From an uncultured Clostridia bacterium (GTDB taxonomy: Bacteria; Bacillota; Clostridia; Oscillospirales; CAG-272): a DNA stretch of 64,000 nt. Under the pieces are notes generated by a model. It did not search any database. It was not told the origin of the DNA and saw nothing but the letters and a program-made list of their open reading frames with translations. The position numbers were made by a program, and so were the translations under genes. The stretch spans positions 11,990-75,989 of the forward strand of contig CANQWE010000002.1 of assembly GCA_947627475.1 (NCBI GenBank), written 5' to 3'. Positions within the stretch are counted from its first letter, which is position 1. Each line of letters begins with the position of its first letter. Below, piece after piece: positions 9,109 to 62,872 of the stretch.

Positions 9109-9780
9109 TTACGGGATCATATATCCCGCGTTTTTCTTTGTCACAATAAAATCGGAAAGCCCCACATCCGCCAGCTTGTGCCGCAGGCGGGTCATATTGA
9201 CGGTGAGGGTATTGTCGTCGATAAACGTATCGCTTTCCCAAAGCCTGCGCATAATCGTCTCACGAGAGACGATGCTCCCGCCGTTTTCCATTAGAAGCTG
9301 CAAAATCCGAAATTCATTTTTGGTCAGTACGATTTTATGATTTTGGACGCTTAAAGTGGCATCCGCAAGATTCAGGATGGCACCGCCCCGCTCCAGCAGC
9401 TGGGCAGACGCGCCAAAGGAATAGGTCCGGCGTATCAGCGCCTGGATCTTGGCGCACAGGACAGTAAGATCAAAGGGTTTTGGGATAAAATCGTCCGCCC
9501 CCATATTCATAGCCATGACGATATTCATTTTATCCCCTGCAGAAGACAAAAAGATAATGGGAACGCTGGACAGGCTGCGAATCTGCTGACACCAGTAATA
9601 TCCATTGAAAAAAGGAAGGGAAAGATCCAGCAGCACCAGTTGGGGATCAAATGCGGTGAAGGTTTCCAGCACGTGCTGAAAGTCCCCGGCACACAGCGTT
9701 TCATATCCCCACCGGGAAAGCTGGGTTTCCACTGCTGCGGCAATGGTAGCGTCATCCTCAACGATCAGTATTTTATACAT
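9109..9780 (-). CDS. OmpR-family response regulator (BceR-like)
   Basis: MYKILIVEDD receiver domain plus a winged-helix C-terminus. The start is taken at ATG 9780 rather than TTG 9798. Confidence 0.85.
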   Translation of the reverse strand: MYKILIVEDDATIAAAVETQLSRWGYETLCAGDFQHVLETFTAFDPQLVLLDLSLPFFNGYYWCQQIRSLSSVPIIFLSSAGDKMNIVMAMNMGADDFIPKPFDLTVLCAKIQALIRRTYSFGASAQLLERGGAILNLADATLSVQNHKIVLTKNEFRILQLLMENGGSIVSRETIMRRLWESDTFIDDNTLTVNMTRLRHKLADVGLSDFIVTKKNAGYMIP

Positions 9781-9825
9781 AGCTTGGCAGGCCTCCAAGG
9801 ATAAACTGTATCAATATAATAACAC

Positions 9826-10255
9826 AATCAGTTTGCAAATGCAACAGAAGGTGAAGGTTCCCGCCTTTCAAAAACAGCTTTTCTCTTTCCTCTTGGAAGA
9901 GGAACATCCTTTCCTTTCTCTTAGAAGAGAAACAGGTTCTTTCCTGCTTTCCGTTAGCAGGGGAACGATGGTACTTTTGCCAGACGCGGCAAAAGTACCC
10001 AAAAGCGCTTTTTCGCGGATCGCAACGCGATCCGTGGGGGCGAAGCTGCAAAGCAGCTTCGCTATAGCGTTTGTTTCGTGCAGACTGAAAGTCTGTCTTT
10101 GGACTGCAAGTTTACAGTGCTGTTGCAGTCCCTGCAATGTCTTGCTATGACTATCCACCTTACGTGAAAGTCTGTACAGACTTTGTAACCCTCCTATAAC
10201 GAGGGAGGTGCCCTTTGAGGGGAGGGAGGATGCACTCCCCTTCCCTACGTTAAAT
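9826..10255. repeat. mosaic hairpin-module element, inverted copy
   Basis: Collinear with the reverse complement of 61233-61447. Perfect hairpins at 9970-9999, 10016-10034 and 10040-10062, and an 18-bp palindrome at 10167-10184. Confidence 0.8.
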
Positions 10256-10337
10256 TTCAAAAAATGCCGCCTTTTTATTGAAACGGGAATTGTTTCATGG
10301 TAAAATAAGTGCAGCAATTTATTTGGAGGACAGTAGT

Positions 10338-11048
10338 ATGTTTGCAGATTCTTTTTCCTTTGAAACGTTTGAAGGCACAAAGTGGACGGCCCCTTATCGC
10401 CTGCGTCTGCCGGAAAACTACAGCATCGAAAAAAAATATCCCGTAGTGCTTTATTACCATGCCGCAGGAGAGCGGGGGGACGACAACATCATGCAGCTTG
10501 CTATCGGTCTGCCTGTTGCCATGCAGGATCCGGACAGCCCCCTGTATGACGCCATCATTATCGCACCCCAGTGTCCCAAAGATAAAAAATGGGTAGACAC
10601 TGACTGGACAAAGGGAAACTATCGTGTAGACGACACGCCGGAAACCATTTATATCCAGACAGCACAGGAGTTGCTGGATTATACCCTGAAAAAATACAGC
10701 TGCGACAAATCCAGAATCTACACGATGGGCATTTCCATGGGATCCTTTGCAGTATGGGATACTCTGGCACGGCACGGAGAACGGTTTGCAGCCGCTTTTG
10801 CCTGCTGCGGCGCGGGGGATCCGTCCAAGGCAGAAAAAATGCGGGACATTCCCATCTGGGCGTATCACGGCGCATTGGATGACGAAGTGCCTGCCGACGG
10901 CACCAGAAATATGGTACGAGCCATCCAGGCAGCAGGCGGAAAAAAAATTCATTACACCGAGTTCCCGGATTTAGGACACTGGACCTGGGACAGCGCATAT
11001 TCCCAATACGATGATATCCGGGCAATGTTTCAGGAAAAAAAGTCGTAA
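10338..11048 (+). CDS. alpha/beta hydrolase (esterase/peptidase S9-like)
   Basis: YPVVLYYHAAGERGDD and GISMGS (GxSxG) motifs. GGAGG precedes ATG 10338. The upstream part of the ORF lies in the repeat. Confidence 0.65.
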   Translation: MFADSFSFETFEGTKWTAPYRLRLPENYSIEKKYPVVLYYHAAGERGDDNIMQLAIGLPVAMQDPDSPLYDAIIIAPQCPKDKKWVDTDWTKGNYRVDDTPETIYIQTAQELLDYTLKKYSCDKSRIYTMGISMGSFAVWDTLARHGERFAAAFACCGAGDPSKAEKMRDIPIWAYHGALDDEVPADGTRNMVRAIQAAGGKKIHYTEFPDLGHWTWDSAYSQYDDIRAMFQEKKS

Positions 11049-11935: not shown

Positions 11936-11964
11936 GAGACCGGACATGGATCCATCCGTCCACA

Positions 11965-12059
11965 ATTCAATACAGGGGTGCTGCGCCCACGCGCGGCTGA
12001 GATGGCGACGGCCGAACCCTTTAACCTGATACGGGTAATTCCGGCGTAGGGAGCATTGA
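11965..12059 (+). promoter_or_regulatory. TPP (THI-box) riboswitch
   Basis: aggggtgc..gctgaga..accctttaacctgat..ggtaat.ccggcgtagggag matches the THI-box core. Confidence 0.85.
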
Positions 12060-12078
12060 GCATCATATTGCTTTTTTT

Positions 12079-23524: not shown

Positions 23525-25295
23525 ATGTATTAATCAAGCGGTAACTATGAAGCATTTGCACGCCCTGAAAATCCGGAAGGTATTGAGCACAAATCAGCGT
23601 ATTTGATCGGCAGCGCCTGGCATCCCTGGCGGCGGCTTGTTTCCTCGTCAGAGACGTTCGGATGCCCGGAAGCCATATTCATGTGCTGGAACGTGATTCT
23701 CATCCCGGCGGCGCTTTGGATGGCGATTAGATGACCAGTGTTGGTTATGTGATGCACGGCGGACGGGAAATGGACAATCACTTCGAGTGTTTGTGGGACC
23801 TGTTTCGTTCCATTCCATCCATCGAAACCGATGGCGTCAGCGTTTTGGACGAATACTATTGGCTGAATAAGAAAGACCCCAACAATTCTCTGTGCCGGGC
23901 GACCCAAAACCGAGGCGAAGGCGCACAGACCGGCAATAAATTTGGCCTTTCGGACAAAGGCAGTATGGAAATTATGAAGTTGTTCATGACTCCGGATGAG
24001 CAGCTGGCCAATGTGAAAATGACAGAACTGTTTGACGATGAGGTTTTTAACACCAACTTCTGGATGTATTGGCGCACCATGTTTGGTTTTAAGGACGACC
24101 AGAGTGCTCTGAAATGAAGCGGTATATGCAGCGCTACATCCACCATATCGAAGGATTGCCGGACTTCACCGCGCTGCGTTTTACGAAATACAACCAGTAC
24201 GAGTCCATGGTACTTCCCATGGTGAAATATTTGGAGGGGCACGGCGTGCAATTCCACTATGGCGCCCGGGTGATGAACGTGCTATTTAACATTCACGACG
24301 GCCAAAAACAAGCAAAGACCATTGTAGTGGAGCACGAAGGCCAGGCCGAGAATATCGGTCTGACCGAAAACGATCTGGTGTTCTACACCAACGGCAGCAA
24401 TGTGGAAAACTCCACCTACGGCAGCCAGACCAAAGCCACCGGTATGGACGGAACCATCCACGAAGGCGGCTCCTTCAGCCTTTGGCGAAAAATCGCAGCT
24501 CAGGATCCTTCCTTTGGCCGTCCCGATAAGTTCTGTACCGATCCGGAGGACAGCAACTGGGTCAGCGCCGCAGTCAATACCCTTGACGAGAGAATTCTGC
24601 CCTATATTCGGAATATCTGCAAGCGCGATCCTCTGTCCGGAAAGGTAGTCACAGGCGGTATTGTTACGGTCAAGGATTCCAGTTGGCTTCTCAGCTGGAC
24701 AAACAATCGTCATCCTAAATACCGTAACCAGCCCAAGGGGCAGGTATTGGTATGGCTTACGGAATGGTCTCTGACCGTCCCGGCGACTTTGTGAGAAAGG
24801 CCATGCGCGACTGCACCGGTATGGAAATCTGTGAAGAATGGCTTTATGACCTGGGTGTTCCCGAGGATCAGATTGAGGAGTTGGCAAGAAACAGCGCCAA
24901 TACAGTTCCGGTCATGATGCCTTTTGCCAGCGCATATTTCCAGCCCCGCGAATCTGGTGACAGACCTGATATCGTACCTGACGGTTCGGTGAACTTTGCC
25001 TTTATCGGTAATTTCGCAGAAACACCCAGAGATACGGTTTTTACCACGGAATATTCCATTCGTACCGCTATGGAGGCAGTCTACACGCTGCTAAATGTGG
25101 ATCGTGAAGTGCCGGAGGTGGGGGCAGTTATTTAATATCCGTGATTTGCTGAACGCCACCGTAGCGTTAAGAGATGGAAAGAAAATTACGAATATGGAGC
25201 TTGGGCTCAAAGAACGGGTTGCTCTAAAGGAAGTTTTGAAAAAAATCGAAGGGACAGAGATTGAAAAACTTTTGGAAGGCCACAATGTAATTTAA
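23525..25295 (+). pseudogene. ohyA: oleate hydratase (MCRA family), multiply disrupted
   Basis: [18 protein letters not shown].., GGREMDNHFECLWDLF, FWMYWRTMF, KRYMQRYIHHIEGLPDF and [17 protein letters not shown] are spread over at least 5 frames. Lesions are listed in the findings. Confidence 0.8.
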
Positions 25296-32229: not shown

Positions 32230-32382
32230 AGGTACCTAAAGAGGAAACACCGAAAATGGAGGAAAACACAATGAACAAACGCACCGCCAACAGATTACAG
32301 AAATGAAAAGCCAGGCCATCGGAGTCGAGGTTAGACCTATGTCAATACTTTGGATAAAAAGGCTGGAAGTTTGTGCCACTTT

Positions 32383-32480
32383 TTAAATTTCATCCACGTT
32401 TTGCTGCGGAGTCATATAATCAATGGCACTGTGAATTTTTTCGGTTATACTATGATTCTATATACTCAAAGATAGCCCTG
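32383..32480 (-). mobile_element. IS3-family transposase C-terminal fragment C
   Basis: By-eye translation gives AIFEYIES*YNRK(K)IHSAIDYMTPQQNVDEI*, which carries one stop and one frameshift in an A-run. Confidence 0.45.
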
Positions 32481-32536
32481 CTCCCTTATAATCCTGTTAA
32501 GTGCGACGATGGACTTCCTCGTTAGGAGGGATTTTT

Positions 32537-33650
32537 ATGCCCAAAAGTTACAAACCTATCATGGAATATGAAAAAGAAATATTAGAATAGAAAGCATAAT
32601 ATTACGTCCAATGGATGAACAATTAGGGTTTATATATAAGCAACAGCACAATTTCATTCCGCGTCACAATGCCAATCAGCGTAAGCTAAGCAGAAATAGC
32701 GTTAAAACGCAAAGGCAGACCGTCCAAAAACTATGTTGTATCGGAACAAAATAAGGCAGCCGAGCGAAATAGATCCTTGCTCACAAAGAAGAAAAGATAA
32801 AATTATTAAAAAGGAAAATGCACTGATGCGGGATTTTCGCTTGCTTACCAAAAAGAAGTAAGATCAAACATAAAATAATAGTGATCTGTTGTCATAGAAA
32901 CAAATATGGGTAAGAAAAATGTGCAGATTGTTCTTGGTATCAACAAGCGAATATTATGACTTTGGCAAGCAAATGGATCCACCTGCAAAAGATTTGCCGT
33001 TGACGAAAAAGATACAGGAATGCCTAAAAAGTGCGGAAAGACCTACAGATACCGCAGAGTACATATATGGTTAGAGCGTAACGGCATACATCAGAATAGC
33101 AAAAAATGCTTCGTGTTATGCAGAAATACGGTAGAAATACAATTTTTGTCACCAGTCAGAAGAAAGCAATAGGACAATTATGGAGAATATCTGCAACATT
33201 ATCCTAAATTACTGAACAGAGATTTGAAGGACGCAGACCAAACCAAAAGTGGGGTACAGATATTTTTGTATCAAAACAGCACGGGGAACATTGTATTTGT
33301 CTATCATCAGAGATTTATTTGGCAACAGCATAGTTGCCTATAGAACAGGGATAGAACATTAGTTTTGCTCTATCTGCTATGCGTGAAAAAGCTACCCGTT
33401 ACCAGAAATTGAACGCACGCAAGCGCAAATCTGACAGTATAAACCGGTACAAAATGCTGGCGCGGAAAATTTCCGCCCAAATTTACCGGAAATGCAGCCA
33501 TCATATTTTCCTGTACAGCGACTTTCTGGAAAGTATTGTACAGGGGCGAAAACTATGACCGAAGGCGAGGGTAAAGGCTTCTCCTGTACCATATTGCAAA
33601 GAGCCAAAGCGCAGGATTTTTTGTGAAAACGATCCTACTTGTTTTGCAAT
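32537..33650 (+). mobile_element. IS3-family element remnant B (orfA + orfB, heavily decayed)
   Basis: RBS aggaggg plus MPKSYKPIMEYEKEILE*; MCRLFLVSTSEYYDF..; ..RPNQKWGTDI..; TARGTLYLSIIRDLFGNSIVAYRTGIEH. Many stops and frameshifts. Confidence 0.6.
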
Positions 33651-33779
33651 GTTGTAAGTATGCATTGGATCATTATAAAAATGAATCCTCGAAAGAGGAC
33701 AAATAGCATTTAATAGAAAAGGCCCCTTGTGGGCGGTTTCCAAGGAACCGCCCACAAGGGGCAGTCAGCATTAACTGAC

Positions 33780-34425
33780 TGAGGGATTGCTATACTATAG
33801 GATTGTAGAAAAAGGAAAGGACATACTTACAATCTCTCCGAGTTTTGCTGCGCAAAATCCACCTCCCTTTACACAAGGGAGGCTTTTATTTTAGAAATAA
33901 CAGAATACCCCCACCGGCGGCAGGGTCGCCACCACCCCCTGGCAGGTCGTTCTGCGACCTGCAGCACTGGGGAGGCTTTTTAGTAGTTCCTCGAACAATA
34001 TGTTTTACAGAATCTTTATTTTAACAGTTGAACCAAGTGGCTACAGATAATAATGTTTCTTTCAACTACGCTGTCTCCTCTTTAACGCCCCCCCAAAGAA
34101 AACAGATTCATTGTAGGTTATTTCCTTTTATGGGGTTTTAATACAAGATTTTTTGGGGGAGATATTATCCCTCTGGAAAAACTGGTGAAAGAGGAAACGG
34201 CGTAACTTCAGTCACGCCGCCCCTTGAAAGCACATTTTTTCAACCTTTTTCAATTTTTACTGTTGTTTTACAACCACCCAGCATTAAACCAGCAGCTTTT
34301 TTAAGTAGCTCTTGCTACGCTCGTTGCCCTCCTCCTTGTAAACATTACAATGGAACTAATGCGTTAAGCCCCCCTATGCTGTAGGGGGGTGTCCCGGCAG
34401 GCCGGGACGAAAGGGTTGGTCATAC
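33780..34425. other. ORF-free, hairpin-studded spacer at the right edge of the island
   Basis: No ORF of 60 aa or more. Contains GC-rich hairpins in an AT-rich background. Confidence 0.4.
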
Positions 34426-49959: not shown

Positions 49960-49967
49960 ATTTCTAA

Positions 49968-50130
49968 CACGGTAGAGGTGCATTGTGCCAAGAGTACTGC
50001 AGACGGGATAGGGTCGACCGCCTGTTGTTTGCAGAAAAGGGGCAGATGCCGAAGACAGGCTGCGGTCACGTCTGTTCTGGTTTGGGTGAATAAGATCATC
50101 CCGACTGTCGCTTTTGCGGAGAGCTATCTG
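49968..50130 (+). promoter_or_regulatory. lysine (L-box) riboswitch
   Basis: ggtagaggtgc start, ..gccgaag.., and ..ccgactgtcg..ggagagcta end match L-box conserved segments. dapA-dapB-lysA follow. Confidence 0.8.
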
Positions 50131-50164
50131 ATTTCGAATTTCGATAGGAATATTAGCTTTTTTG

Positions 50165-59222: not shown

Positions 59223-59293
59223 TAAGAATATAGATATATAATGTGAACTTTTTGTTAAATTAGGGGTGGAGTGCCAAAATGTCACCGGTCTCC

Positions 59294-59322
59294 TTGACAA
59301 AAGAAAGGCGCCTCTTTATAAT
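59294..59322 (+). promoter_or_regulatory. promoter TTGACA-17-TATAAT
   Basis: Consensus boxes upstream of the glucokinase gene. Confidence 0.5.
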
Positions 59323-59356
59323 ATGGGTATCCAAGGAAAGGAACGCACATTTTATT

Positions 59357-60322
59357 ATGTATAACATTGGAATTGATCTTGGCGGTACCAACATCGCCGC
59401 AGGTATCGTAGATGAAAACTACAATATTGTAAAAAAAGCCTCCACCCCCACCAACGCCGGCCGCAGTGCTGATGAAATCACCGCGGATATCGCCGCACTG
59501 TGTCAAAAGGTAACTGCTGAAGCAGGTCTGACGATGGATGAGATGGACAGTATCGGCATCGCAACCCCGGGAACGGCCAACTGCGGGACAGGGGAAATTT
59601 TATATGCAAACAATCTTCCCTTTTCCAATTATCCCATGGAAAAAAAGCTGTCGGAATTTTTGGGCTGCAAAAAGCGGGTATATATTGAAAACGACGCCAA
59701 CGCAGCTGCCAAGGCAGAAGCTGTGGCAGGCGCTGCAAAGGGATCGAAATACTCTGTGATGATCACCCTGGGCACCGGGGTTGGCGGCGGTATCATTTTA
59801 GACGGACAGGTATATTCCGGCTTTAATCATGCAGGCGCGGAGCTTGGCCATATGGTAATCGTAAAGGATGGCAGACAGTGTACCTGCGGACGGCGGGGAT
59901 GCTGGGAGACCTATTCCTCTGCCACCGGGCTGATCCGGACCACCCGGGAAAAGTTAGAGGAATGCAGAAAAAGCGGCCGCAGCACCGTGATGGAAGAAAT
60001 GATCGGCGGGGACCTGAGCCGGATTTCCGGCAGAACTGCTTTTCGCGCCATGCAGACGGGAGATGCAGTAGGGGCCGAAGTGGTAGACGAATATATCTCC
60101 TATTTGGCTACCGGACTTGTAAATATTATTAATATTTTCCAGCCCAATGTGTTGTCCATCGGCGGCGGAATTTCCAATGAAGGGGATTCTCTCATTGAAC
60201 TGCTCCACGATCGTGTATTTGCAGAGACATACACCCGAGGAGACACGCCCCAGTGTTCGCTGAAAATTGCAAAGCTGAAAAACGACGCCGGAATCATCGG
60301 CGCCGCAAGCTTGGGGTTGTAA
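59357..60322 (+). CDS. glcK: ROK-family glucokinase
   Basis: IGIDLGGTNIAAG and a CTCGRRGCWE zinc motif. Start at MYNIG. Confidence 0.85.
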   Translation: MYNIGIDLGGTNIAAGIVDENYNIVKKASTPTNAGRSADEITADIAALCQKVTAEAGLTMDEMDSIGIATPGTANCGTGEILYANNLPFSNYPMEKKLSEFLGCKKRVYIENDANAAAKAEAVAGAAKGSKYSVMITLGTGVGGGIILDGQVYSGFNHAGAELGHMVIVKDGRQCTCGRRGCWETYSSATGLIRTTREKLEECRKSGRSTVMEEMIGGDLSRISGRTAFRAMQTGDAVGAEVVDEYISYLATGLVNIINIFQPNVLSIGGGISNEGDSLIELLHDRVFAETYTRGDTPQCSLKIAKLKNDAGIIGAASLGL

Positions 60323-60332
60323 ATCTGCAGCA

Positions 60333-61570
60333 AACAAGCGCCATAGCGAAGCTGGGGAAGTCAGCTTCGCTTCTACGGATCACGACGCAATCCGCAAAAC
60401 GCTCTTTTGGGTACTTTTCCTCAGCGTAGGAAAAGTACCCTCTGTTTTCCTTTGCTTCGGGAGGCAGGAAAGAAACTGCTCCTTTTCCAAAGGAAAGAGA
60501 AAAGGACGTTCCTTTTGTACTGTGACAAAAGGAACCAAAAACACAGAAAAGGGAAGGGGGATTCCCCCTTCCCTTTTCGATCCCTTCCCCTTTGACAAAT
60601 GGGGCAGGGCAAACCTTTCGGTATGCGCTAAGTTTCCAGCAGCTGCAGGATAGATGGAAAGCAAAAAGATATCGTCTGTATAAGACGAGACAAATGCAGT
60701 TTGCAGAAACGAAAAAAGCTTTCCTCTAAAGGGGGGATTGCGAAGTCTATACAGACTTGGCGTGAAGTGGATCAGCAAAGCAGCATTTTGCAGGACCTGC
60801 ACAACAGCACCGTAGTCAAGCAGTCCAAGGACGGACGGAAAGTCTGCAGAAGACAAACGCGATCGCAAAGCCGGGCATCCGGCTTTGCCCTACGGATCGT
60901 TGTGCGATCCGCAAAAAGCATTTTGGGGTACGTGTACTTTGCGCAGCAAAGTACCATTTTGCTTTGGAAAAAAGTACCATCGTCCCCCCTGCTTCGGTAA
61001 GCAGGAAAGAAACTGCTCCTTTTCCAAAGGAAAGAGAAAAGGACGTTCCTTTTGTACTGTGACAAAAGGAACCAAAAACACAGAAAAGGGAAGGGGGATT
61101 CCCCCTTCCCTTTTCGATCCCTTCCCCTTTGACAAATGGGGCAGGGCAAACCTTTCGGTATGCGCTAAGTTTCCAGCAGCTGCAGGATAGATGGAAAGCA
61201 GAAAAATATCGTCTGTCTGAGACAGAGACAAAGAAAGTCTGTACAGACTTTCGCGTAGAGTGGATCACCACGGCAAGACATTGCAGGGTCTGCAACAGCA
61301 CCACAGTCAAGCAGTCCAAGGACAGACGGAAAGTTTGTACAAAACGAACGCGATAGCCAAGCCGGGGATCCGGCTTGGCCCTACGGATCGCGGTGCGATC
61401 CGAAAAAAGCGTTTTTGGGTACTTTTGCCGCGCCTGGCAAAAGTACCATTGTTTCCCCCCTGCTCCCAGAGCAGAAATTCCCCCGTGGAGATGGGAAAAG
61501 TCGATTTTCCCCACCGCTTCAAAGGGAGCCTGTAAGGGAAGTCCTATAGTTTTACAGGTCAAAAAACCTC
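60333..61570. repeat. tandem array (~2.3 units of ~537 bp) of the mosaic hairpin-module element
   Basis: Offset of 537 nt, with 60464-60663 identical to 61001-61200. Flanking modules are diverged but collinear. No credible ORF. Confidence 0.85.
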
Positions 61571-61573
61571 CCA

Positions 61574-62872
61574 TCACTTTCCGGAAACGGTGATCCCGTT
61601 AAAGGCTGCATACGGAAGCACCGAATATCCGTCCGCTACCCTTTCCCGGGAAATTGCCTCTACGTTTTGCAGCATATCGGCAAGATTGCCGGAAATCATC
61701 GTCTCGCTCACCGCATGGGTGATCTTGCCGTTCTCAATGAGAAAGCTGTTTTTGGCAACCCCGGAGAAATCTCCATTGGTACTGGGCTGTCCACCGGAGA
61801 AGCGGCCCACCAGAATGCCCTTATCAATGGAAGCAATAATCTCCTCCACCGAGCGGTCTCCCGGCCGCATCACCATGCTGCCCCCGGCGTTTTTCGCCCG
61901 GGGTACGCCAGTTTTATTAGATACATACAGTCCCACTAAAAAGCTGGACAGCTTTCCCTCCTGGATAAAGTCAAAATCCTGGGCCAGAAAGCCCTCTGCC
62001 GTATACGACTGCCCGCATACGACCTGTGGATCCCCAGGCGCAAAGGAAACGGTGATTTTCGGATCCGCTACCTGCTCGCCCAGCTTGTCCTTCCAGATGC
62101 TGGTACCCTCCAGCACCGGTCCGTCGGACGCAAAATTGTCCGCGATATCTCCCAAAAAGGAACCCAGGCATCCGGGAGGCAGCAGCATCACCCCGGTGAA
62201 TTTCTCACCGACTGTCTTTGTGTGGATCTGCTTCTCTACGTCTGCCAAGTCCTTTTCAATGGAGCCAAGTTCCATAAAAGGACGATCCAGATTATCTGTT
62301 ATGACGCCTGTTCCAAAGAAGGAAGAGGCCGCCTGCCCTTCATGGGCAGAAAACATTAAATCTACATTATAGTATCCGGCATCTTTGGTATAACACGCGC
62401 CGTTTGTATTACGGTATACACTGTGACTGCGCACATGAGACACGATCATTTGCTCTACCATGATTTTTGGATATTTTTTCCCGATTTGCTCCAGCAGCTC
62501 CGCCGTCCGGTCAAAGAGCCGATCCACATCTGCCGTGAGAACACCCTGGGTAAAGCTGTGCACTTCTCCGTCCGGCGCCAAATCCCATGCCGAATCCGGT
62601 TCTGCAGAAACAGCAGACGCCATACAGTCAGCCACGGCCTGATCTACCGCCGCATCGTCAAACCGGTTGATTCCAACAGAGCCCTTTTTCCCCTCTGTAA
62701 TTCCGGTAAGGGACAGCGAATTGTCAAACAAGGTGCGCATCAGGCTAAATTGGCCGCCATCCACATTGAATTCTCTGGTAACACTGGTAGACGCGGTGCA
62801 GTGCGCCTTATCCGCACCGGCCCCCTGTAATTTTTCTATGACATTCCCCGTTATTTTATCCAGTTCGATCAT
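61574..62872 (-). CDS. pmbA: TldE/PmbA family metalloprotease subunit
   Basis: Peptidase U62 family similarity by eye. Paired with tldD. Confidence 0.75.
   Translation of the reverse strand: MIELDKITGNVIEKLQGAGADKAHCTASTSVTREFNVDGGQFSLMRTLFDNSLSLTGITEGKKGSVGINRFDDAAVDQAVADCMASAVSAEPDSAWDLAPDGEVHSFTQGVLTADVDRLFDRTAELLEQIGKKYPKIMVEQMIVSHVRSHSVYRNTNGACYTKDAGYYNVDLMFSAHEGQAASSFFGTGVITDNLDRPFMELGSIEKDLADVEKQIHTKTVGEKFTGVMLLPPGCLGSFLGDIADNFASDGPVLEGTSIWKDKLGEQVADPKITVSFAPGDPQVVCGQSYTAEGFLAQDFDFIQEGKLSSFLVGLYVSNKTGVPRAKNAGGSMVMRPGDRSVEEIIASIDKGILVGRFSGGQPSTNGDFSGVAKNSFLIENGKITHAVSETMISGNLADMLQNVEAISRERVADGYSVLPYAAFNGITVSGK

Follow-up and report, generated by a model that had tools for sequence, protein, structure and literature searches.

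We report that the spacer between the convergent genes glcK and pmbA of an uncultured Clostridia bacterium is filled by an array of hairpin-rich repeats. The spacer lies in the 64,000-nt stretch of contig CANQWE010000002.1 analyzed here (the window), extends over 1251 bp from the glcK stop to the pmbA stop (60323–61573) and is without a credible gene. Its repeats are arranged head-to-tail in units of 490–540 nt, each of which holds more than 12 near-perfect hairpins. We favor, with moderate confidence, the explanation that the array belongs to a previously undescribed family of non-coding mosaic interspersed repeats, built as chains of hairpins, selfish and similar to bacterial interspersed mosaic elements (BIMEs) and BOX elements, in an Oscillospiraceae/Ruminococcaceae-like gut bacterium. 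The repeat is dispersed and multicopy; therefore, a selfish element resembling repetitive extragenic palindromes (REPs), BIMEs, BOX elements or miniature inverted-repeat transposable elements (MITEs) leads among the explanations. An earlier reading of the window, made from its letters alone (the sequence-only reading), had listed a search for REP-like sequences merely as a check; it has now become the leading interpretation.

The natural unit, which occurs as a single copy in two other loci (L132 and L134), consists of a seven-module core followed by a 3′ block. The core modules are, in order, Ha (AAGTCTGTACAGACTT), Hb, Hc, Hd, He, PK1 and Hg; the 3′ block is made up of purine/pyrimidine-rich hairpins, after which Ha opens the next unit. 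The window array runs in the order partial core A, 3′ block, core B, 3′ block, core C and alternative tail (Table 1), and the same tail module ends the arrays in L133 and L136. A repeat search showed that inverted repeats pack the whole spacer, that the 234-nt 3′ block occurs twice with 97% identity at a spacing of 537 nt, and that the remainder of the unit recurs at 491–493 nt with 73–83% identity (83% between 60802–60950 and 61293–61441); a third, partial unit copy lies at 60321–60463. The near-identity of the 3′ blocks beside the more divergent cores (72–83% identical) shows patchy conversion. The tandem arrangement described in the sequence-only reading stands, but its fixed period of about 537 bp does not, as the period varies from 491 to 537 nt. 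Tandem Repeats Finder reported no repeat in the region because the array period exceeds its maximum of 500 nt. A 33-nt perfect palindrome (Hk) occurs twice in the array.

In agreement with the sequence-only reading, no genuine open reading frame (ORF) was found: those that the region does contain, at most 253 aa long, are spurious, and a search of 5.8 billion proteins related them to nothing but nine translations of other repeat copies, with no Pfam domain. The same reading had seen no transposase, cas or reverse transcriptase gene and had recognized no family. Pfam analysis of 40 ORFs detected no intact mobile-element gene of these kinds in the window, and the region had no match in Rfam 15 even at E ≤ 10, its best score being 23 bits against a gathering threshold of 79. 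Rfam was searched at gathering and permissive thresholds with the region, the whole window and the related loci, and returned only two unrelated riboswitches, for thiamine pyrophosphate (TPP) and lysine. The region contains no tRNA or tmRNA. It is also not a CRISPR array, in which repeats of 24–48 nt alternate with unique spacers of about that length, since the period is 491–537 nt and the whole unit is repeated without unique spacers. Plasmid and phage collections gave no match to the unit, and neither the unit nor the Pseudomonas version of its PK1 motif (see below) matched in E. coli, plasmid and phage collections.

The repeats are not only the local tandem structure described in the sequence-only reading but are dispersed, with a second locus in the window, three near dnaA and copies on other contigs. 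When the spacer was compared with the rest of the window by self-BLAST at low stringency, a fourth copy emerged at approximately 9846–10186 on the minus strand (unit D), overlooked in that reading, between the diverging genes for a response regulator (9109–9798, minus strand) and a hydrolase (10278–11048, plus strand). Gene callers often call the repeats as ORFs, and therefore a 253-aa minus-strand ORF was used as the query of a protein search; the contigs encoding its matches supplied the extra copies. On a 2.47-Mb contig of the same genome, in which the window lies approximately 228 kb from dnaA in reverse orientation, arrays occur at cysS/rbfA, at truB/dnaA (three units) and after dnaN, within a span of 8.4 kb. 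These arrays (L133, 370–889, 3417–4727 and 8032–8459) bracket dnaA–dnaN, and the 1565-bp truB–dnaA spacer consists mostly of the three units, opposite in strand to dnaA. Further units are located on six other metagenomic contigs, and a metagenome scan with an overly strict pattern of 27 fixed bases returned a single locus, L132.

The host genome was covered by the window and about 26 kb of other stretches (about 90 kb in total), and a few dozen copies were available. Within these 90 kb, five arrays occupy intergenic sites. The units are intergenic only, either single or in head-to-tail arrays of up to three, and the family fills approximately 2.6% of the window, which is an unbiased sample of the genome. 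An identical GlcK is encoded in ten assemblies, one of which spans the spacer with 99.9% identity to the window, while the other nine stop within the first repeat, as expected of a multicopy sequence.

The family is gained, lost and reshuffled at the DNA level. The glcK–pmbA spacer of two relatives lacks similarity to the element and has another hairpin set instead; its length is 300 bp where PmbA identity is 91% and 209 bp where it is 84%. After an ABC-F gene, the strains represented by L132 and L134 are 100% identical in the flank and the first module, whereas inside the element their identity is approximately 65–70%, with different PK1 variants and one unit versus two. Copy-number variation among strains, to which the sequence-only reading had partly tied its case, is thus present at this locus. 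On another contig (L136, 4770–5200, minus strand), an ORF runs directly into a PK1 module with neither a stop nor a spacer between them; either the repeat truncated this gene or the contig is a chimeric assembly joined within the repeat.

The hairpins of the array are under constraint and are not neutral junk. In an alignment of 18 units (A2), in which 54 pairs in seven hairpins were counted, standard pairs occupied 88.4% of the cells, compared with 29.7–48.2% when the partners were slid by 1–3 columns. Both sides had changed in 32 cells versus 11.0 ± 2.7 after shuffling (0 of 500 shuffles reached this number), and the covariation score was 0.131 versus 0.076. RNAalifold by itself identified six pairs with compensatory changes. 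The shuffle significance is overstated because the unit copies are related; the slid-partner controls preserve this relatedness, yet the pairing still collapses. Against dinucleotide shuffles, the full unit gave a folding z-score of −8.0 on the plus strand and −12.2 on the minus strand.

The double changes and the paired fraction bear out the proposal in the sequence-only reading that pairing-preserving changes reflect selection on the hairpins, and inspection located the hairpins quoted there at their positions. Its Hd example is right: the arms are GCGAAGCTG/CAGCTTCGC, GCAAAGCCGG/CCGGCTTTGC and GCCAAGCCGG/CCGGCTTGGC in copies A, B and C, with G-C, A-U and C-G at one position. Its second example, presented as a matched indel, is actually two paired substitutions in the inner PK1 hairpin, the stem of which reads TTTT-CCT..AGG-AAAA in one copy and TTTT-GCC..GGC-AAAA in the other.

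The sequence-only reading had left RNA and DNA side by side as the target of this selection. The constraint holds, and our data lean to selection on DNA or single-stranded DNA (ssDNA) over strand-specific RNA. When stems were predicted with G·U disallowed in approximately 10 kb of window-family arrays, isolated mismatches between paired positions numbered 8 for G·T and 9 for A·C, and a column count on A2 gave 36 and 39, respectively. The orientation of the window family is mixed, being antisense to both neighbors at cysS/rbfA and truB/dnaA and sense at CotH/ABC-F; the remaining sites are convergent or divergent spacers. The balance of G·T and A·C and the random orientation relative to genes therefore fit selection on DNA or ssDNA better.

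The PK1 module has relatives in other phyla. The shared module (PK1–PK2) is TTTTGGGTACTTTT...AAAAGTACC, usually followed by TCGCC..GGCGA, and shows pseudoknot-like covariation between loop and flank. When 185,579 species genomes were scanned for TTGGGTACTTTT-N10-14-AAAAGTACC, at least 119 stretches matched; our own estimate of the chance expectation, for uniform sequence, is approximately 1–2. Among the matches listed, two thirds belong to metagenome-assembled genomes (MAGs) of Oscillospiraceae and other Clostridia, where a MAG typically has the motif on many contigs and often close to their ends; cultured Pseudoflavonifractor phocaeensis (An858/An901) is also included, and the others belong to Bacteroidota, Pseudomonadota, Desulfobacterota, Fibrobacterota and Candidatus Peribacteria (candidate phyla radiation). 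Two extra upstream T's, which the pattern does not demand, are present in all 131 copies among these matches, and TCG continues the motif in 21 of the 42 copies outside Bacillota. The complementarity between the loop of the hairpin and the bases that immediately precede the motif (a:a′) was 4.24 versus 3.12 ± 0.08 in shuffled pairings, and that between the loop of the TCGCC..GGCGA hairpin and the bases after it (b:b′) was 3.72 versus 2.56 ± 0.11, each more than 10 standard deviations above the shuffled pairings. In the window copies, a:a′ comprises 3–6 bp and differs in sequence between copies; in core A, for instance, the upstream ACGCT is complementary to the loop AGCGT.

The module matches nothing known and is the strange part of the finding. 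Rfam returned nothing for the motif in 18 related loci, in L009 or in L130/L131, and one match was found in 2.9 million viral contigs. A single-sequence nhmmer search with the whole spacer gave only weak partial matches to the listed motif loci (at least 119), with which the window family has just the PK1 module in common. No protein cluster recurred within −3 to +2.5 kb of the 131 motif copies among the matches listed, and ten sampled upstream ORFs, judged from their sequences alone, appeared to be unrelated ordinary cellular proteins without likeness to transposases. A conserved neighbor gene, such as TnpB, IscB or RAYT (REP-associated tyrosine transposase), was accordingly rejected as a candidate partner.

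Several motif loci were of interest in their own right. In a Wenzhouxiangellaceae (Gammaproteobacteria) MAG (L118, 950–2100, minus strand), TTTTGGGTACTTTT..AAAAGTACC-TCGCC occurs in three tandem units of 508–509 bp directly downstream of two tRNA genes, a hairpin mosaic like that of the window in another phylum. In Mucilaginibacter (L009, 4150–4900), the spacer with the motif also holds other repeat-like palindromes, for example ...TGCTTCGTTCCTCGCAATGACG..., and the motif may thus sit in an intergenic repeat mosaic in Bacteroidota too. On the Pseudomonas antarctica plasmid pP27494_1 (L131, 1599–3100), a relative of the motif lies near a frameshifted transposase gene of the IS110 family, approximately 200 nt from its start; this gene is missing from the gene table of the plasmid and is the only transposase seen beside any copy. 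An IS110 bridge RNA was considered for this case and rejected, as no other locus resembles it; we interpret the case as IS110 having inserted near a REP-like target. On the Bacteroides plasmid pBF9343 (L130, 2490–2565), GGTTCTTTTTTGGCGTTTGAAAAAAGAAC is followed by CCCCCC..GGGGGG, with the same architecture and a different sequence. This hairpin is at the 3′ end of an ArdC-like gene and can be read as an ordinary terminator on the strand of that gene. The idea of a leading-region or single-strand promoter, prompted by this plasmid, was rejected because its hairpin reads GGTTCTTTTTT.. and so differs from the motif, and because it resembles the terminator of the ArdC gene.

An alternative that we consider unlikely is that the unit or the PK1 region is a structured non-coding RNA, either a multicopy small RNA or a cis-acting element of an untranslated region. 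Selection would then act on the RNA, and the repeats would represent copies of a gene and not selfish DNA. The compensatory stem changes in A2, a folding z-score of −8, the a:a′ and b:b′ complementarity above shuffles and several single changes that produce plus-strand G·T wobbles in Hc are consistent with this view. Furthermore, motif copies outside Bacillota tend to share the direction of the gene upstream of them (21 against 11 among the matches listed, by crude ORF calling). In contrast, the copies in Bacillota are randomly oriented (32 against 33 on the same basis), and the window family is antisense to both neighbors at two sites. The mismatches do not show the excess of G·T expected of RNA, being balanced in the window family and tilted the opposite way in the broad motif set (G·T 13 versus A·C 25). 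Folding is better on the minus strand than on the plus strand, conservation of nucleotides is confined to stems and does not extend to loops or junctions, Rfam has no matching family, and a scan of both strands for sigma-70-like promoters found 0 sites.

We also propose, tentatively and with low confidence, that PK1–PK2 is an undescribed phylum-spanning structured motif of two consecutive loop-to-flank pseudoknots with invariant stems, and that it marks a new class of mobile or guide-like element. Its layout would be a variable stem a, YTTTTGGGUACUUUU, a′ in the loop, AAAAGUACC and UCGCC-b-GGCGA-AAC-b′. It could be either the recognition fold of an ssDNA mobilization system or an orphan guide-RNA scaffold, and the mosaic repeats of Oscillospiraceae would represent one lineage that builds the module into larger units. 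If PK1–PK2 is a genuine cross-phylum motif, it would point to an unrecognized mobilization or guide system acting on single-stranded nucleic acid.

A more specific form of the guide-RNA idea is doubtful. It holds that PK1–PK2 is both the guide-RNA scaffold and the end of a gene-less IS200/IS605-type derivative, such as a palindrome-associated transposable element (PATE) with an orphan omega-RNA, mobilized by TnpA and used by TnpB, both encoded elsewhere in the genome. Gene-less PATE-like elements that encode omega-RNAs, are dispersed and are thought to move as ssDNA have been documented (PMC10055086), and the window family resembles them in being gene-less, hairpin-bearing and dispersed, with a possible pseudoknotted RNA scaffold. 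The module is pseudoknotted and phylum-spanning, like horizontally spread insertion sequence ends, and many of the matches listed are at contig ends. In one MAG (S10_Bin2; L015, L018, L036 and L096), conservation among the copies extends through the end of PK2 and gives way to divergence right after it, as would be expected of a right end followed by a guide. However, no TnpB- or TnpA-like ORF recurs beside any of the 131 copies among the matches listed, the only nearby transposase is the frameshifted gene on the Pseudomonas plasmid, and no sequence match to an omega-RNA-type Rfam family was found. Nor does the window family have a demonstrable TnpA/TnpB partner, a conserved target-adjacent motif or a guide-like junction: its module is internal to the unit, not terminal, and the few single-unit insertions (D, L132 and L134_759) have hairpins and show no shared flanking motif.

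It is very unlikely that the arrays are sites of replication or chromosome structure, that is, clusters resembling DnaA boxes or bound by nucleoid proteins that flank dnaA and dnaN. Three arrays do lie within 8.4 kb of these genes, every core contains GTGGAT(A/C), which resembles part of the DnaA box, and a single replichore rule fits the orientation of the element at 4 of 5 loci. However, the DnaA-box match is only 7/9, and the position of L133 is a biased sample because this contig was fetched for holding a copy. The replichore rule was rejected as not significant, the array at glcK, 228 kb from dnaA, breaks it, and most copies are in ordinary intergenic sites. Finally, a neutral, recent local tandem duplication of a terminator-rich spacer with unselected hairpins is hardly tenable, for although the 97% identical 3′ blocks show recent duplication or conversion, unlinked copies and those of other strains are 65–83% identical and still 88% paired with an excess of double changes, pairing falls to 30–48% with slid partners, and the element is absent from the orthologous spacer of the relatives.

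We therefore return to the selfish repeat family. Such a family would be non-autonomous repeat DNA of the REP/BIME or BOX kind that spreads to new intergenic sites, and exchange between copies, by unequal recombination or by gene conversion, would enlarge its arrays and make them uniform. The arms of the palindromes would stay complementary since the element must fold back as a single strand, most likely because a trans-acting ssDNA enzyme of the HUH/Y1 type, like RAYT or IS200 TnpA, recognizes the fold. Mobilization as folded ssDNA by such an enzyme is the most likely mechanism, although unproven. As a side effect, stable hairpins with T-rich tracts after them on both strands probably act as two-way terminators or insulators and protect the 3′ ends of the flanking genes. 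A simple consensus scan of both strands found 27 terminator-like hairpins versus 2.7 ± 1.5 expected; the outermost are the PK1 hairpin of core A, which starts 87 nt past the glcK stop, and the tail module, which is terminator-like on the minus strand and starts 75 nt past the pmbA stop. The ten-fold excess makes a side effect as terminator or insulator plausible.

Several observations weigh against a selfish mobile family. No transposase or RAYT could be tied to it in the approximately 90 kb of genome covered. Units D, L132 and L134_759 have no target-site duplication and no common flank, and no terminal inverted repeat exists except for the palindromic Ha at the unit borders. With 540 nt and a dozen hairpins, the unit is of far greater complexity than the substrate of any REP or REPIN system. 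The relatives show absence of the element and not a clean empty site, because their spacers are too diverged to align. The loop-to-flank complementarity of PK1 is a trait usual in folded RNAs, and the terminator role is deduced from the simple consensus scan.

A REP is a 20–40-bp imperfect palindrome that is extragenic and present in high copy number. REP/BIME sequences often lie between convergent or same-direction genes, with proposed effects on termination and mRNA stability (PMC3733652; PMC2817692). The same sources describe short near-perfect palindromes in multicopy intergenic mosaics, with stems kept by complementary changes (PMC3733652; PMC2817692), and the window family is similar: its modules are 16–33 nt long, 88% of stem cells are paired, and the copies are intergenic and multiple. 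In contrast, the units of the window family are direct head-to-tail repeats and do not alternate in orientation, and they comprise approximately 540 nt with more than 12 distinct hairpins instead of one 20–40-bp palindrome. No invariant GTAG/CGTC tag is present in any module of the family; in front of He, the three window copies A, B and C have CTAC, which reads GTAG on the opposite strand, and other copies have CCAC, CAAG, CCTG or CATG there. No RAYT was detected among the 40 window ORFs or the genes called in L133 and L146. The host also differs, being a member of Clostridia, while the REP catalogue makes no mention of Firmicutes or Clostridia (PMC3733652).

Large BOX elements have extensive structures and spurious ORFs on both strands and were judged to be parasitic, with slow turnover (PMC3049150). 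Like BOX, RUP and SPRITE elements, the window family belongs to Firmicutes and is modular, with sub-modules variable in number and kind, no transposase of its own and restriction to a lineage (PMC3049150). No sequence relationship to BOX is expected. BOX has three boxes (A, B and C), whereas the window family has more modules, a longer unit, whole-unit tandem arrays and a cross-phylum module. It is also unlike MITEs, with neither terminal inverted repeats nor target-site duplication at the three single units named above. The arrays resemble intrinsic terminators in having G+C hairpins followed by T-rich tracts on both strands near both convergent stops; however, one hairpin suffices for a terminator, while the array is 1.25 kb of modules mostly without a T tract, and the same unit also occurs in the divergent promoter region at 9846–10186. 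Because the family differs from REP/BIME in tag and orientation and has no identified RAYT, and differs from MITEs in its ends and from PATEs in its partners, we regard it as a separate variant of interspersed mosaic hairpin repeats.

Interspersed hairpin repeats have received much study in Proteobacteria, as REP/BIME, and in streptococci, as BOX. Our literature search found nothing relevant on such repeats in Clostridia or Oscillospiraceae and no description for Oscillospiraceae/Ruminococcaceae, which are dominant in gut metagenomes. The family breaks short-read assemblies and yields spurious gene calls that are already in protein databases. Because the repeats at a single locus differ between strains, they affect the quality of MAGs, annotation and the typing of strains.

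Table 1. Positions of the array, its modules, the flanking genes and a second hairpin family (window coordinates unless a locus is named)
Feature	Position	Strand	Details
Whole array	60323–61573	+	nhmmer matches 60276–60693, 60738–61233, 61235–61532
Partial core A	60321–60468	+	Hd 60346–60370, He 60376–60394, PK1 60409–60440, Hg 60449–60468
3′ block, copy 1	60453–60686	+	Hj 60508–60535, Hk 60546–60578, Hm 60633–60660, Hn 60672–60688
Core B	60738–61005	+	Ha 60743–60758, Hb 60788–60801, Hc 60832–60846, Hd 60865–60888, He 60893–60911, Hg 60987–61005
PK1 variant of core B, with nested extra hairpin	60926–60978	+	
3′ block, copy 2	60990–61223	+	Hj 61045–61072, Hk 61083–61115, Hm 61170–61197, Hn 61209–61226
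Core C	61235–61474	+	Ha 61235–61250, Hb 61281–61294, Hc 61323–61337 (G·T wobble), Hd 61356–61379, He 61384–61402, PK1 61417–61447, Hg 61458–61474
Alternative tail module	61475–61573	+	Hairpin TTCCCCCGTGGAGATGGGAAAA at 61478–61499
Single inverted unit D	9846–10186	−	Ha 10168–10183, Hb 10124–10137, Hc 10081–10095, Hd 10040–10062, He 10016–10034, PK1 9970–9999, Hg 9943–9962
ROK-family glucokinase gene (flanking)	59279–60322	+	Pfam/ORF
PmbA/TldD-family gene (flanking)	61574–62872	−	ORF
G/C-run hairpin family	33700–34410, 10190–10260; L146 6900–7150; L140 5300–5599; L141 3441–3649		

A second, unrelated family of hairpin modules, built on runs of G and C, recurs in intergenic spacers of the genome (Table 1). 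Examples are AAAGGCCCCTTGTGGGCGG..CCGCCCACAAGGGGC, GCCCCCC..GGGGGGC and ..GGGAGGCTTTTT. These modules occupy the glcK–pmbA spacer of both relatives that are without the main element.

Other observations were made in the window. An MCRA-family (oleate hydratase-like) gene at 23731–25135 is split into three ORFs that cover profile positions 51–175, 177–387 and 387–495, and is probably a frameshifted pseudogene or the result of a sequencing error. A low-GC stretch of 1.2 kb at 32250–33480 has no long ORF, and its broken frames read like an IS3-family OrfB (GKTYRYRRV..., W.TDI..., LYLS.I.DLF..IVAY). Pfam rve matched a hand-stitched translation (approximately 32.9–33.4 kb) with E = 0.14, and this part may be a badly decayed IS3-like remnant. 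The two riboswitches, both above the Rfam gathering score, are the TPP riboswitch at 11964–12069 upstream of a thiamine transporter gene and the lysine riboswitch at 49965–50134 upstream of dapA/dapB/lysA.

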